In this document: one piece after another, positions 11,032-30,008 of the stretch
How positions within the stretch are numbered: position 1 is the stretch's first letter
Layout of the letters: every line of letters starts with the position of its first letter
Program-made: the position numbers and the translations under genes
The notes under the pieces: generated by a model
Told to the model about the DNA's origin: nothing
Database searches by the model: none
What the model saw: the letters and a program-made list of their open reading frames with translations, nothing else
From: Vicinamibacteria bacterium
Lineage (GTDB): Bacteria; Acidobacteriota; Vicinamibacteria; Fen-336
Assembly: GCA_050246895.1 (NCBI GenBank)
Contig: JBFWVE010000004.1
Coordinates: 71,676-135,675 of the forward strand
Direction of reading: 5' to 3'
Length of the DNA stretch: 64,000 nt

Positions 11032-11427
11032 ATGGCCAGCAAGGGGCGCGGCTTCCGCGCCCTCGAGATCGAGGGCTTCGAGGTCCTGGTCGGCAAGGGC
11101 GACGCGGACAACGACCGCTTGACCTTCGCCGTCGCCGAGCCACGCGACTTCTGGCTCCACGTCGCCGGCGTGCCGGGCAGCCATGTGATCGTGCGCAACC
11201 CGGCCGAGCTGCCCGAGCTGCCGCGAGCGGCCGCCGAGGCCGCGGCGCAGCTCGCGGCCTGGCACTCGAAGGCTCGCGGCGCGCGCGGCAAGGTCGAAGT
11301 CCACCTGTGCCGCGTCGCCGACGTCAGCAAGCCGCGCGGCTTCGCGCCCGGCGAGGTGCGCCTGCGCCGGTTCGAGTCGATCCGGGTCTACGCGAGGGAG
11401 CCGGCGGGCACGGCCATGGAGCCGTGA
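11032..11427 (+). CDS. Stand-alone NFACT-R (DUF814) RNA-binding domain protein
   Basis: VGKGDADNDRLTF, DFWLHVAGVPGSHVIV, AAQLAAWHSKAR, KPRGFAPGEV. Confidence 0.85.
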   Translation: MASKGRGFRALEIEGFEVLVGKGDADNDRLTFAVAEPRDFWLHVAGVPGSHVIVRNPAELPELPRAAAEAAAQLAAWHSKARGARGKVEVHLCRVADVSKPRGFAPGEVRLRRFESIRVYAREPAGTAMEP

Positions 11428-11562
11428 ACGTGACCGTGCCCGTGAACGTGCCCGGCCGGGTGACGGCCGGGACACGTCGACGTGCACGTGCACGTGAACG
11501 TGAACCGAACGGCCGGGACACGTGCACGGGGGCGGGAACGGATCGGCCGGGCACGATCACCG
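11423..11562 (+). repeat. Repeat cluster R1 of the CGTGAACGTG...CACGATCACG family
   Basis: CGTGnn hexamers, then CGGCCGGGACACGT units, ending GGCACGATCAC; contains the stop codons of both flanking genes. Confidence 0.9.
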
Positions 11563-13593
11563 GAGGCCGGGAAGCATGCGGCAGGCCTCCTGCGTTCCCG
11601 CGTCGCAGGCGCCCTTCAGCAGATCCTTCGCCTTGGCGAGGTTGCCCTTCTGGGCCAGGAGTTGCGCCCAGCCGATGCAGGCGTGCTGGATCTTCTCCGC
11701 GCACAGGCCCTGCAGCGTCGAAAGCGCCTTCGGCGGATCGGGCAGGACGCCACGGCCCTGCGCCTGGAGCACCGCGAAGCGGGCGCAGGCGGACTTGTCG
11801 CCGCCGGCGCATCCTCTTTCATAGGCGCGGGCCGCGCGGACCGGGTCGGCCTTGATCCCGAGGCCGCCCTCGAGGATCGATCCGAGCGACGTGCAGGCGC
11901 CGGCCTGCCGCTGGCACTCGGACTCGAGGAACGGCACCGCCTTGGCGCAGGCCGCGTCCTCTCGCTTTTCGTAGCAGCGAGCCAGCAGCTCGTACGGGGC
12001 GCCCTCGCCGGCGGCGCTGGTTGCCGCAGAAGCAGCCTCCCCGGCGCTCGCGCCCGGCTGCGCTGCCGGGCTCGCCGGAGCCGCGGGCGTCGAGGCCGCC
12101 GCCCTGGCCGCGGGGCGCGCGGGCTGGCGTTGCAGGAAGTCGAGATAGCTCTGCGCCCGCTGGCGCTCTTCGGCGGTGCGGGCAGCGTTCAGCGCGGAGC
12201 GCGCGGCCTGCGCCGCCTCGGTCGGCTTCTGTGAGGCCCACAGGGCGCGCGCGTGCGCCAGGCGGTGGTAGGAGACGCCGGGCTCGAGCTGCACGGCGCG
12301 CTCGGCCAGCGCGAGCCCCTCCGCCACCCGCTGTTGGTCGACCCGCACATCGGCCAGGTAGGAGAGCACGTCGGCGTTCTCGGGCGCCAGCTCCTTCGCT
12401 CGTTCGAGCAGGGCCGCGATCTTGGCGAGCGCTTCCGCGGCGAGGCTCTGCTGCCACAGCAGCTGCGCGAGGCGGTAGTGGACCCACGGGGAGGTGGAGC
12501 CGGCGGCGACTGCTCTCTCGAAAGCCGCCTGCGCCTCGGCCCGCTGGTTCTCCATGTCGCGCAGGCGGCCCTCGATCTCGTCGGGCCCCGGCGCCTTCGG
12601 ATCCGCCGCGCGGGCCTCGTCCGCGAGGGCGCGCGCTTCGAGCGGTCGCCGCGACGCGACGAGCAGCTCGGCCCGGAGCGTCGACGCCTCGGCGGCCGAC
12701 ACCGGCCGGACGGCGAACGCCTCGGCCCTCACGCCGACCGCCACGTCGAAGCGCGCGTACTGCATCACGCTGCGCTGGAGGTACTCCTTCATCCCGAGGT
12801 AGAGCGCCTGGAGATCCCCCAGGGCCTGCGGGACGGCCTTCTCGGAGGGGATCCCCTCGAGCAGCAGCGTCGCGAGTTGCGCGAACTTCGCCTGGTGAGC
12901 CCCCTGCTCGCCGAACAGCAGGTAGTGCACGAACGCCCATGCCTGCGCGTCGAAGGTCTCGATCTGCACCTCTCCAGTCAGCCAGGAGGACGCCCCGTAG
13001 CGCGCGCCCAGGAAGTCGTCCATCGGCACGAGCGCGCGCTGGCGAATGGTCTCCAGGCTGTTGCGGAGCGGGCGCCCGACCCGCAGCTCCTTCTCGCGGA
13101 CCGAGGTGCTGCTCATCAGCTCCGCTACGCCGCGCACCAGCCAGGGCGGGGCGGCGACGTGAAAGGAGCGCCCGAACGCGACCGCGGCGTAGCTCCAATA
13201 GGCACTCCGGTAGGGGTTCTCGTCGAGCTCCGCGTCCTCGCGGACGTCGGTGCGCAGGGCCACGAACTGCTTGTCGCGCCCGCTCGCGGAAAAGGAGACC
13301 GGCCGGAAGCGCTTGCCCTCCCAGTACTCCGGGCCCAGCGTTCGCAGGGCCGCTTCGTCGCGCGCAGCGAGAATCACGAAGGGGTCGCTCGAGTCGACCC
13401 GGGCCCACGGGAACATCGTCGCCATCGCGCCGCGGATCTGCTCGAACTGCCAGGCGACCTTGCGGCCGGCCTTTTCCCCCGCGTTCGTGACGACGGTGAA
13501 GTGAGGGCTCTTCACCTCGGTCCAAGGGGGCGGAGCCGCCAGGGCTCCCGATGCCACCGCGGTCGCCGCAAGCACAGTGACGAGGTGCTTCAT
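11557..13593 (-). CDS. Secreted DUF1570-like (degenerate zincin) + TPR + Sel1-repeat protein
   Basis: Start MKHLVTVLAAT after GGGAGG; WTEVKSPHFTVVTN, PPWLVRGVAE, AQAWAFVHYL; TPR helices; Cys-paired Sel1 repeats. Confidence 0.75.
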   Translation of the reverse strand: MKHLVTVLAATAVASGALAAPPPWTEVKSPHFTVVTNAGEKAGRKVAWQFEQIRGAMATMFPWARVDSSDPFVILAARDEAALRTLGPEYWEGKRFRPVSFSASGRDKQFVALRTDVREDAELDENPYRSAYWSYAAVAFGRSFHVAAPPWLVRGVAELMSSTSVREKELRVGRPLRNSLETIRQRALVPMDDFLGARYGASSWLTGEVQIETFDAQAWAFVHYLLFGEQGAHQAKFAQLATLLLEGIPSEKAVPQALGDLQALYLGMKEYLQRSVMQYARFDVAVGVRAEAFAVRPVSAAEASTLRAELLVASRRPLEARALADEARAADPKAPGPDEIEGRLRDMENQRAEAQAAFERAVAAGSTSPWVHYRLAQLLWQQSLAAEALAKIAALLERAKELAPENADVLSYLADVRVDQQRVAEGLALAERAVQLEPGVSYHRLAHARALWASQKPTEAAQAARSALNAARTAEERQRAQSYLDFLQRQPARPAARAAASTPAAPASPAAQPGASAGEAASAATSAAGEGAPYELLARCYEKREDAACAKAVPFLESECQRQAGACTSLGSILEGGLGIKADPVRAARAYERGCAGGDKSACARFAVLQAQGRGVLPDPPKALSTLQGLCAEKIQHACIGWAQLLAQKGNLAKAKDLLKGACDAGTQEACRMLPGLR

Positions 13594-13632
13594 TGCAGGG
13601 CCTCCCAGAGAGGCCCGATTGTATCGATTGGA

Positions 13633-13776
13633 CACGTTCACGTGCCCGTGCCCGTAAACGTGCCCGGCCGGGTGACGGCCGGGACACGTCGACGTGCACG
13701 TGCACGTGAACGTGAACCGAACGGCCGGGACACGTGCACGGGGGCGTGAACCGAACGGCCGGAGCACGATCACGGG
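13633..13776 (+). repeat. Repeat cluster R2, near-identical direct repeat of R1
   Basis: About 125 bp match R1 with only a handful of differences; offset 2212 bp. Confidence 0.9.
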
Positions 13777-13788
13777 TACGGAACGAGC

Positions 13789-28656: not shown

Positions 28657-28715
28657 CCGTGAACGTGATCCGGCCGGGACACGTGGGCCGGCCGTCGGCC
28701 GGGACACGATCACGG
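28657..28715 (+). repeat. Repeat R7, minimal 59-bp hairpin unit
   Basis: 20-bp left arm, 19-nt loop and 20-bp right arm. Confidence 0.92.
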
Positions 28716-28716
28716 C

Positions 28717-29853
28717 TCACCAGACGATCTGATAGCCGCTGCTCCGGCCGCCTTTGGCCGTGGGGGCGAGGCAGCCTCGCTCGACGAGTTCGGACAGCTC
28801 TCGATAGGCGGTGGCGCGGCTGGTGCTGGTCAGGCTCATGTACTTGCGGGTGTTCATCCCGCCCTCGAAGCCGCCAGGGCCGGCGTCGAGCAGGCGATTG
28901 AGCGCTCTGCGCTGGCGAGGGTTCAGATCCGTGGCCTGGTGCCGCAGCCAGAAGCGGGCCTTCGCCAGGGTGCCGGCGATCGTGCCATCCGCAGCGGTCG
29001 CGGCCGACGCGACCTGGTCCAGAAACCACGAGAGCCAGACGGTGACGTCCAGCCCGCCGCGCTGCGTGCGCTCGAGCGCGGTGTAGTAAGCCTCGCGCTC
29101 GCGCAGGAGCTGGGCCGAGAGGCTGAAGACGCGGAGCGGCTGCCGCTCGTCCTGGGCCAGCGCCATGTCCGTGACGGCGCGCGCGAGCCTGCCGTTGCCG
29201 CTTTCGAAAGGGTGCAGCGTCACGAACCACAAATGCGCGATCCCGGCGCGCACGAGGCCGTCGAGATCGCGCGGGGGCCTCTCGAACCACTCGAGGAAGC
29301 GATCGAGGTCGGCCCCCAGGCGGGCGAGCGGCGGCGCTTCGAAGTGGACCCGCTCCCGCCCGGCGGCGCCCGAGACGACCTGCATCGGCTCCCGGCCGCG
29401 CAGCCGGCCCGTGCGAATCGTGCGCAGGCCGGCGCGACCCGTCGGGAAAAGCGCGGCCTGCCACCCGAAGAGCCGCTTCCGCGTCAGCCGCGCGTCGTGA
29501 TGCTGCGTGGCGTCGAGCAGCACCTCGATCAGGCCATCCACGCCGCGCGACGGCGCCGGCAGTCCGGCCGTGGGCAGGCCCAGGTGGCGGGCCACCGAGG
29601 AACGCACCGCCGCTGGGTCGAGCCGCTCGCCCTCGATGGCGCTGGTCGTCAGCCCGTCTTCCGCGAGGATCGCGCCGACGGCCTCCAGCGTGAGCTGGGG
29701 GTCGAGCATGCTTGCGGCCCCGAGGACCTTGCCCTGGGCCAGCCGGGCCGCGGCCAGGCTGGGCGCGAGCGCGCCCGCGTCCCAGCCGAACCGCGGCCAC
29801 TCACGCTGCTGCCAGATCCAGGTTCGAGGGGATGCCACCGCTATTCGCTCCAT
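28717..29853 (-). CDS. Fic family protein (DUF4172 N-terminus, C-terminal HTH)
   Basis: WIWQQREWPRF, TSAIEGE, HPFESGNGRLAR, SRATAYRELSELV. Confidence 0.9.
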   Translation of the reverse strand: MERIAVASPRTWIWQQREWPRFGWDAGALAPSLAAARLAQGKVLGAASMLDPQLTLEAVGAILAEDGLTTSAIEGERLDPAAVRSSVARHLGLPTAGLPAPSRGVDGLIEVLLDATQHHDARLTRKRLFGWQAALFPTGRAGLRTIRTGRLRGREPMQVVSGAAGRERVHFEAPPLARLGADLDRFLEWFERPPRDLDGLVRAGIAHLWFVTLHPFESGNGRLARAVTDMALAQDERQPLRVFSLSAQLLREREAYYTALERTQRGGLDVTVWLSWFLDQVASAATAADGTIAGTLAKARFWLRHQATDLNPRQRRALNRLLDAGPGGFEGGMNTRKYMSLTSTSRATAYRELSELVERGCLAPTAKGGRSSGYQIVW

Positions 29854-29904
29854 TCCATGAAGCGATTATGGCAGGGATTCGCTTCGGCGGGGAGGCCGGC
29901 GCGG

Positions 29905-30008
29905 CCGTGATCGTGCCCGTGAACGTGATCCGGCCGGGACACTGGGACCGGCAGTCGGCCGGGACACGATCACGGGAGCCGGCACCACCGGCCGGGACAC
30001 GATCACGG
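29905..30008 (+). repeat. Repeat cluster R8
   Basis: 59-bp unit at 29917-29975 with arms identical to R7, plus an extra right arm. Confidence 0.92.

Follow-up and report, generated by a model that had tools for sequence, protein, structure and literature searches.

Proteins of the PF05635/TIGR02436 family are widespread, and the settings of their genes include rRNA intervening sequences, type I restriction operons, and diversity-generating retroelements (DGRs). Short inverted-repeat elements at gene junctions are known in the form of the Correia-type miniature inverted-repeat transposable elements (MITEs), while pdif modules are bracketed by recombination sites (i.e., 28-nt XerC/D sites of alternating orientation). 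Here, we analyzed a stretch of 64,000 nt from a Vicinamibacteria bacterium (GCA_050246895.1, contig JBFWVE010000004.1, positions 71,676 to 135,675; i.e., C4:71676-135675 of the genome G000), hereafter called the window. Eight clusters of one palindromic repeat (U1 to U8, in their order along the + strand; 11423 to 30008) mark in it the seams of an island of toxin-antitoxin, Rhs, and Fic genes. We are fairly confident that these repeats represent a lineage-specific composite similar to repetitive extragenic palindromic (REP) sequences and bacterial interspersed mosaic elements (BIMEs), and that they are a local dialect of hexamer arrays that accompany four-helix-bundle (i.e., PF05635/TIGR02436) genes, concentrated in an accessory island. 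The link to these genes is absent from the reading of the repeats given in a preliminary description of the window. In the available portion of one preprint, the PF05635-type domain is called functionally uncharacterized and is placed in rRNA gene inserts, the gene family behaving as an element inserted at many sites (bioRxiv 10.1101/2024.02.27.582315); the consulted part of another report describes PF05635 as homologous to Avd, the accessory protein of DGRs (PMC10053308).

Structure of the repeat unit and comparison with described repeats

The genome (5.54 Mb; 72% G+C; 35 contigs; 94.5% complete) was compared with those of 30 relatives, all from other genera, and motif over-representation was judged against the counts expected from shuffled sequences. 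In the window, GTGAACGTG occurs 15 times (14 on the + strand and one on the minus strand, at 13633; 0.30 expected) and CACGATCACG occurs 14 times (0.25 expected). Thirteen of the CACGATCACG copies lie inside the island, 11 of them on the + strand and two on the minus strand (27996 and 29906) within left-side hexamer runs, and the sole copy outside it (57392, minus strand) lies within a predicted open reading frame (ORF), without the hairpin. Runs of CGTG or CACG (three or more at 6-nt phase) are confined within the window to the eight clusters. A profile hidden Markov model (HMM) built from five island units matched the genome 10 times at E<1e-3; eight of these matches, all on the + strand, fall within the island, and the rest of the window gave no match even at E<10. 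All eight clusters were read, and they are real, uniformly oriented, and missing from the other ~45 kb, as the preliminary description had claimed.

The full unit is an imperfect palindrome of ~60 nt in which (CGTGNN)n hexamers, one or more CCGGCC hairpins (written CCGGCCGG), and (NNCACG)n hexamers follow one another; its consensus is CCGTGAACGTGAyCCGGCCGGG - loop - GGCCGGC-nnnn-GGCCGGGrCACGATCACGG. The two 20-nt unit ends are imperfect reverse complements (17 of 20 positions complementary in the U7 unit, counted by eye). Folded as single-stranded DNA, the units form three helices separated by conserved symmetric 1x1 mismatches (five units on the + strand and two on the minus strand), with minimum free energies of -20.5 to -26.8 kcal/mol (z, -1.5 to -5.7). 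The arms are conserved and the loops variable. Every full unit carries CGTGAAC as its left box and GATCACG as its right box, and an A.A mismatch is kept in every unit at the position where an attC site would have A-T. The number of hexamers and sub-units differs between clusters.

The family is largely restricted to this genome. The 19-nt core GGCCGGGRCACGATCACGG (up to one mismatch) has 17 genome matches, nine of them in the island, and at most one match in each of the 30 relatives. Outside the island, seven of the eight matches fall into three loci that each hold a four-helix-bundle gene, while the eighth (C4 421212) belongs to no described locus. A solo copy of the palindrome lies between convergent core genes (C1 1779598). 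Among JGI metagenome contigs, the full-unit pattern had no match; the 19-mer core matched once in each of 92 stretches, the six contexts viewed being unrelated sequence without the unit; no stretch held more than three motif matches, and no second array was found. The isolated CACGATCACG 10-mer has 202 copies in the genome, mostly in ordinary coding sequence (i.e., Val-Ile-Val antisense), and such isolated copies were left out of the family count.

Comparison with described families yielded no match: no Rfam family reaches its gathering score in the window, and the unit differs from the resident attC family (see below). Like REP/BIME sequences and the related REPINs, the island repeats are short, GC-rich, imperfect, intergenic palindromes that occur in clusters of variable number and are lineage specific. 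Unlike them, they are co-oriented rather than head-to-head, have only 17 core copies in a few loci, are built of 6-nt-phased CGTG hexamers, are linked to one gene family, and lack a REP-associated tyrosine transposase (RAYT). The RAYT/Y1 transposase (PF01797) had no match at E<=0.01 in the genome (94.5% complete), and control genomes did give matches. As regards Correia-type MITEs, neither a target-site duplication nor a matching autonomous insertion sequence (IS) was seen, and inspection of U7 and U8 by eye showed no evident duplication. In contrast to pdif sites, the island arms lie 35 to 45 nt apart and their orientation is constant. The genome contains other abundant repeats that are unrelated to this family (i.e., a family of ~58 copies containing GCAGACGCAGCGGGTCGCGACGCCCCGTCAGG, and the GGGGAGGGGGAATCACTCGCG and TAGGGGTGGGGGGTCGATG families of ~50 copies each).

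Hexamer arrays and four-helix-bundle genes

The left-arm motif of the island belongs to wider hexamer arrays in which ACGT or CACG recurs at a constant 6-nt phase (e.g., ACGTGA ACGTGA ACGTCA). The pattern ACGTNN x4 + ACG has 81 matches in the genome versus 0 to 3 in each of the 30 relatives, and its reversed control has none in any of these genomes. Strict arrays occupy 43 loci on both strands, nine of which lie within 1 kb of a four-helix-bundle gene, versus 1.3% expected. The genome has 31 matches to PF05635 (23S_rRNA_IVP; TIGR02436, "four helix bundle protein"), 30 of them above the cut-off, and with a looser definition, phased arrays are found a few hundred bases upstream and on the same strand at ~21 of the 31 genes.

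Two subfamilies illustrate the arrangement. In nine genes of the main one, one to three hexamer units of ~55 nt are followed by a conserved leader of ~250 nt with a hairpin, GGAGG, ATG, a variable N terminus, the four-helix-bundle domain, and, in most of the nine copies, a site ending in GTTCGAC or GTTAGGC. The second (five genes: the window gene, C1 1537700, C1 1756506, C4 40631, and a broken one at C4 321139) carries the CACGATCACGG dialect; its members share a leader of ~200 nt, AGGAGG, and ATG. In all five, the repeat is present in frame between the Shine-Dalgarno-ATG segment and the domain (read as GHDHG) and again right after the stop codon, and of the 30 CACGATCACG copies that these loci contain, 28 share the orientation of the local four-helix-bundle gene. 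The window gene has the conserved ~200-nt leader, the AGGAGG Shine-Dalgarno sequence, and the ATG, and its product scores 56.5 bits against PF05635 (cut-off, 33.8) and 58.8 bits against TIGR02436 (cut-off, 24). U5, which consists of right arms only, as previously described, lies in frame within the N-terminal extension of this ORF and is likewise read as GHDHG. Because the five paralogs carry the repeat both in the N-terminal extension and after the stop codon, U5 and U6 are the flanks of the window's own four-helix-bundle gene.

The leaders of both subfamilies (e.g., L004 580-1000 and window 27300-27493) end in a hairpin just before the Shine-Dalgarno sequence; the loops are alike (cTTCGTGAG and TTGTCGTGAG) and the stems differ (GGCCGGCCTC and CGCCGCCCC), which looks like a conserved RNA structure with compensatory stems.

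Arrays also accompany these genes in other genomes. Relatives of another family yielded few arrays; those at G020:C121, G029:C433, and G025:C301 immediately precede four-helix-bundle genes, and at G017:C7, one array lies in frame in the N terminus of such a gene and a second follows its stop codon. Directly downstream of the gene, which has an upstream array, at the first of these loci (L111, 2700-3400), we noted by eye an ORF resembling the start of an hsdM-like type I methylase. We scanned one genome per species with an alignment of ten domains, and obtained 42 loci (L115-L156) from Myxococcota, Acidobacteriota, Verrucomicrobiota, Bdellovibrionota, and other phyla. Arrays were detected generically as any tetramer recurring at period 6 in four or more units; the count at three or more units was not used because it is noisy, coding sequence having its own period-3 and period-6 signals. 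Near the gene (i.e., from 700 nt upstream to 1000 nt downstream of the match), there are 31 such arrays in 72.7 kb (0.43/kb; 22 of the 42 loci), compared with seven in the 146.6 kb of the remaining parts of the same loci (0.05/kb) and six in 446.8 kb of unrelated control loci (0.013/kb). With five or more units, the counts are 20, 3, and 0, respectively. Thus, across the 42 loci, arrays are ~9 to 30 times more common beside four-helix-bundle genes than in the controls. The hexamer sequence is lineage specific (TCCCGT, CGACCG, GGGAGA, GGGGTC, CACGTT, and others), while the 6-nt phase is constant. Most arrays lie 100 to 350 nt upstream of the start codon or in the 5' part of the ORF. The upstream array is outside the open frame in at least seven of the 14 loci that have one, and at L150 and L151 the array is translated in frame as Pro-Val or Ser/Thr runs. 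A full-text literature search (supplements aside) found no report linking the PF05635/TIGR02436 family to hexamer arrays. These fixed-phase, lineage-specific arrays are a concrete and testable partner for the protein.

One explanation of this linkage is that the arrays are operator-like, i.e., that an oligomer of the four-helix-bundle protein would bind the 6-nt-phased repeats, either as DNA or, with greater plausibility, in the leaders of RNAs. The clusters of the island would then be additional targets through which the protein controls the toxin-antitoxin, Fic, and other neighboring genes. We consider this unlikely, albeit with an appreciable chance of being correct. It accounts best among all the readings for the linkage across phyla, and several features suit it: the hexamer sequence varies by lineage with a constant phase and position beside the gene; arrays are placed mainly ahead of the start codon or early in the ORF; the arms, with their invariant A.A mismatch, are conserved next to variable loops; the clusters supply 5' untranslated regions (the final sub-unit of U6 provides a GGAGG at a distance of 12 nt from the hicB ATG); and the homology to Avd stated in the consulted part of PMC10053308 is joined by a best PDB match of the window protein to 2GSC, an entry listed with five chains. 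Binding by this candidate protein has against it that the family is labeled functionally uncharacterized in the available portion of the preprint (bioRxiv 10.1101/2024.02.27.582315). Moreover, at least nine of the 31 genes have no array, and binding alone leaves unexplained the uniform strand orientation of the repeats between genes on both strands and the direct repeats that bracket modules.

Alternatively, the repeats may be functionless DNA, selfish or born of slippage, their microsatellite-like hexamer runs and hairpins having been expanded by replication slippage and gene conversion in non-essential spacers and being tolerated next to dispensable genes. The copy number of hexamers and sub-units does differ from cluster to cluster, the family has expanded in one lineage only, and hexamer runs that enter ORFs stay in frame (PV, ST, VH, and GHDHG runs). 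Nevertheless, slippage alone does not produce an enrichment of 10- to 30-fold beside one gene family across phyla, nor does it explain conserved asymmetric arms with fixed mismatches or the 28 of 30 copies co-oriented with the gene, and we regard this origin as distinctly doubtful.

A broader proposal, speculative and rather unlikely as a whole, is that a phased array and a PF05635/TIGR02436 gene together constitute an undescribed element present in several phyla, in which the protein oligomer would recognize its own 6-nt repeats. In this genome, such an element would have reached 31 genes and more than 40 arrays, would head attC clusters in the place of an integrase, and would have built the module array of the window, in which acquired modules are joined at the repeats.

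Two described settings of the family can be compared directly with the window. As in 23S rRNA intervening sequences, a PF05635 ORF is flanked by complementary sequence (GGGCACGATCAC at 27549-27560, with its complement at 27997-28008). In contrast to them, the window element is not in an rRNA gene (no Rfam match, to rRNA or otherwise, at the gathering score), and the hexamer arrays and hairpins that form its flanks are also present at sites lacking the gene. The homologous four-helix-bundle fold and family are shared with Avd, as far as the consulted part of the source describes them (PMC10053308). Unlike in DGRs, no reverse transcriptase gene lies near the window gene. The only RVT_1 match of the genome is at C1:1882445-1882873; the distance between this reverse transcriptase gene and a four-helix-bundle gene on the other strand is ~1.4 kb (C1:1880892-1882873), and the locus may be a DGR. 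Since only one of the 31 four-helix-bundle genes adjoins a reverse transcriptase gene, the others are not parts of DGRs.

The island as an accessory region

Gene assignments in the window rest on Pfam, as a caller based on GC3 covers only 73% of the genome and misses the low-GC3 genes of the island. The clusters and the modules between them are as follows.

11423..11563, + strand: U1, a composite of CGTG-phased hexamers, CCGGCC hairpins, and a CACGATCACC right arm
11557..13632, - strand: TPR/Sel1-like gene (weak Pfam matches), bracketed by U1 and U2
13633..13776, + strand: U2, a near-copy of U1, which ends 12 nt before the stop codon of the PAP2 gene
13789..17385, - strand: PAP2-domain gene, an ORF without a Pfam match, and a cyclophilin-type peptidyl-prolyl isomerase (PPIase) gene
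17395..17500, + strand: U3, a full palindromic unit with an additional left arm, located between PPIase and fitA, which are divergent
17446..18239, + strand: toxin-antitoxin pair fitA (RHH) and fitB/vapC (PIN) by Pfam; the true fitA start is later than 17446
18246..18403, + strand: U4, two full units, beginning 7 nt past the stop codon of the PIN gene
18499-24828, + strand: Rhs/Tc-like polymorphic toxin ORF (Pfam)
24855-25244: small ORF without a Pfam match
25979-27592, - strand: rve DDE transposase gene, whose long open frame overlaps U5
27494..27949, + strand: four-helix-bundle gene (PF05635 23S_rRNA_IVP, TIGR02436), one of five paralogs flanked by this repeat type
27527..27596, + strand: U5, two sub-units of hairpin plus CACGATCACGG, without a left arm
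27951..28150, + strand: U6, right arms, a left hexamer run, and several hairpins
28153..28626, + strand: hicB-hicA toxin-antitoxin pair (Pfam)
28657..28716, + strand: U7, one clean 60-nt unit, which ends 1 nt before the stop codon of the Fic gene
28717..29853, - strand: DUF4172-Fic gene (Pfam; SoFic-like in PADLOC), bracketed by U7 and U8
29905..30008, + strand: U8, a left hexamer run, one full unit, and an extra hairpin plus right arm

The Pfam matches bear out most of the module contents that had been described earlier (i.e., TPR/Sel1, although weakly, PAP2, PPIase, FitAB, Rhs, the four-helix bundle, HicBA, and Fic), while the ORFs named "barrel" and "immunity" have no Pfam match; the IS assigned to the Rhs module is present as the rve transposase gene, on the minus strand rather than the plus strand. 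The 2109-aa ORF at 18499-24828 combines SpvB, FG-GAP, TcdB middle/N, and RHS-repeat domains (i.e., a Tc-toxin-like or Rhs shell architecture).

Several clusters abut their neighbors closely. The first hexamer of U1 holds the stop codon of the NFACT-R gene and its right arm holds that of the TPR ORF; U6 begins 2 nt past the stop codon of the four-helix-bundle gene and ends 2 nt before the hicB ATG; and U8 ends 19 nt before the stop codon of a beta-lactamase-like gene. Such positions, and the stability of the GC-rich hairpins right after stop codons, would suit factor-independent terminators or mRNA-stabilizing hairpins between transcription units, as would the solo copy between convergent core genes. 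However, no T tract follows any unit, a scan with a consensus terminator flags no cluster, the genes on the two sides of U3 are divergent, U5 is contained in an ORF, and U6 reaches a start codon. This role is thus very improbable, in agreement with the earlier argument against simple terminators.

In a relative of the same family (G009), synteny with the window extends up to the NFACT-R ortholog, and no more than 500 bp further on it is restored with the ortholog of window 36570-37757. As G009 joins these two orthologs, the window carries ~25 kb that are absent from it. The left edge of this accessory region coincides with U1. The NFACT-R product of the window (11380-11430; compared with L106 12240-12290) has ~9 more C-terminal residues than its G009 ortholog, and its stop codon lies in the first CGTGAA hexamer of U1. 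U1 and U2 bracket the TPR gene as direct repeats; they agree at 130 of 136 aligned positions (96%), and both resemble U6 (87% over 129 nt). U7 and U8 bracket the Fic gene; the best match of U7 is U8, which scores equally well against U4.

The reading that we favor, quite possible if somewhat short of probable, is that the island copies act as portable homology or recombination joints. Copies would have spread from the flanks of the four-helix-bundle gene into neighboring intergenic gaps of the ~25-kb accessory region, where their common orientation would let them serve as portable homology; modules, each with one copy, could then have been inserted, duplicated, or lost via recombination between direct repeats, either of the RecA type or by some site-specific enzyme. 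This would account for the modules bracketed by the most similar repeats, for an orientation that is independent of gene direction, and for the close fit of the repeats to stop and start codons. Should the seams indeed prove to recombine, the island would be a cassette system independent of attC sites; otherwise, the repeats would be a REP-like curiosity with an unusual gene linkage. The portable-homology and protein-binding readings could both be true.

A number of observations weigh against portable homology. The right edge of the accessory region (~36.5 kb) is 6.5 kb past U8 and not at a repeat. The block at 13787-16226 (the PAP2 gene and its neighbor) shares 73 to 75% DNA identity with two relatives (G002 and G007), in which repeats do not flank it; the PPIase gene is not part of this shared block, yet no repeat separates them in the window. 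Flanking pairs that are best matches number only two (U1 and U2, mutually, and U8 for U7), and the best partner of U3 is U2, not U4. Conserved mismatches and arms beside variable loops suit a protein-binding site equally well. Furthermore, 34 of the 43 loci with strict arrays are more than 1 kb from any four-helix-bundle gene, and some CACGATCACGG-type copies flank housekeeping-like genes (M20 peptidase/TetR, Ppx/GppA, and QueG). The dispersal of repeats among housekeeping genes, which had been named in advance as evidence against gene capture, is therefore partly observed: the wider family occupies at least 43 loci on both strands, and copies of the CACGATCACGG type do lie beside such genes.

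Six public sequencing runs, none of them listed as an RNA run, contain part of the window; two of them are possible sources of it, and the contigs of four were compared. These contigs showed no recombination product, circle, or deletion variant, which also weighs against the recombination joints proposed above, although contigs cannot reveal rare variants. The arrangement of the window is seen again in X1, which is the likely source, and in X3, a run of low depth from the same study. Candidate contig joints, with sides of only 20 to 25 nt at 90% likeness, were treated as noise, and none was trustworthy at a repeat. Two further runs provide hints only: in X6, from another study, hicB and Fic are present at ~93 to 96% identity, and a contig begins with a U8-like unit and one right-arm sub-unit just upstream of hicB; in X5, the PAP2-to-PPIase genes are present at ~90 to 94% identity.

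Relation to the integron of the genome

The preliminary description found no IntI or RAYT in the window, which holds for the window; the genome, in which no RAYT was detected, does encode an integron integrase ~470 kb from the island (C4:570379-571317; TIGR02249, 436.8 bits; cut-off, 265). Its gene is complete, and its direction of transcription leads to an attI-like region and three or more attC sites, the contig ending inside the array (G000:C4:570379-573197; L001 17180-19998). The three attC sites beside intI are ~115 nt long, have GTCGAAC...GTTCGAC boxes, and fold with single-base bulges and AAC/GTT cores. An HMM built from them detected 21 copies, which are distributed over nine places in the genome, all outside the window. 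The suggested search for a recombinase or HUH partner thus yielded an integron integrase that uses canonical attC sites, and no Y1/RAYT gene at E<=0.01. In sequence, core (GAT, not GTT), and fold (symmetric mismatches and no bulges), the island units differ from attC sites and are not those of the resident integron, and the lack of RYYYAAC/GTTRRRY cores noted earlier is evident from the CGTGAAC and GATCACG boxes of every full unit.

In outline, the island nevertheless resembles integron attC arrays and clusters of attC sites lacking integrase (CALINs), in that co-oriented imperfect palindromes of ~60 nt directly follow genes and separate cargo such as toxin-antitoxin pairs. It differs from them in having genes on both strands, one cluster inside an ORF, and intI ~470 kb away, and its units differ from attC sites in their GAT right box (versus GTT), in symmetric 1x1 mismatches (versus bulged bases), and in showing no similarity to the resident attC sites.

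The units could also be sites of a site-specific gene capture system, i.e., an integron analogue in which the IntI of the genome acts on non-canonical sites or another recombinase is used. The uniform orientation, the tight packing against stop codons, the cassette-typical cargo, and the module-bracketing direct repeats are consistent with this, as is a unit layout that is attC-like in outline (a 7-nt outer box, a 4- to 5-nt spacer, a GC-rich inner box, and a variable loop); the genome moreover has an active-looking integron, and four-helix-bundle genes head attC cassette arrays at all five such loci. However, GAT replaces the GTT cleavage core, extrahelical bases are absent, the units have no similarity to the 21 attC copies, and intI is ~470 kb off, the rve transposase being the only other recombinase in the window. 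Copies occur inside an ORF, beside housekeeping-like genes, and alone between convergent core genes (C1 1779598), and the run contigs contained no excision or insertion variant. On this evidence, gene capture of this kind is quite unlikely. Of the integron-like reading originally proposed for the island, the accessory nature of the region, the cargo-like module junctions, the uniform orientation, and the lack of a known family stand; evidence of recombination was not found, the right edge and the PAP2/PPIase joint lie off the repeats, and canonical attC sites are located elsewhere in the genome.

Four-helix-bundle genes are also associated with the canonical attC sites. Five attC clusters without an integrase are headed by such a gene (L004-L008; C4 371-378 kb, C1 132-139 kb, C4 1-3.5 kb, C3 373-376 kb, and C2 370-373 kb). 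Wherever canonical attC sites lie close to a four-helix-bundle gene (five of five loci), a hexamer array comes first, followed on the same strand by the conserved leader, the gene, an attI-like or GTTCGAC-ending site, and attC. Two of these genes are followed by sequence that is 77 to 82% identical to the attI region. In addition, a low-GC cassette run (C1 1-8763) ends at a hexamer array beside a core gene.

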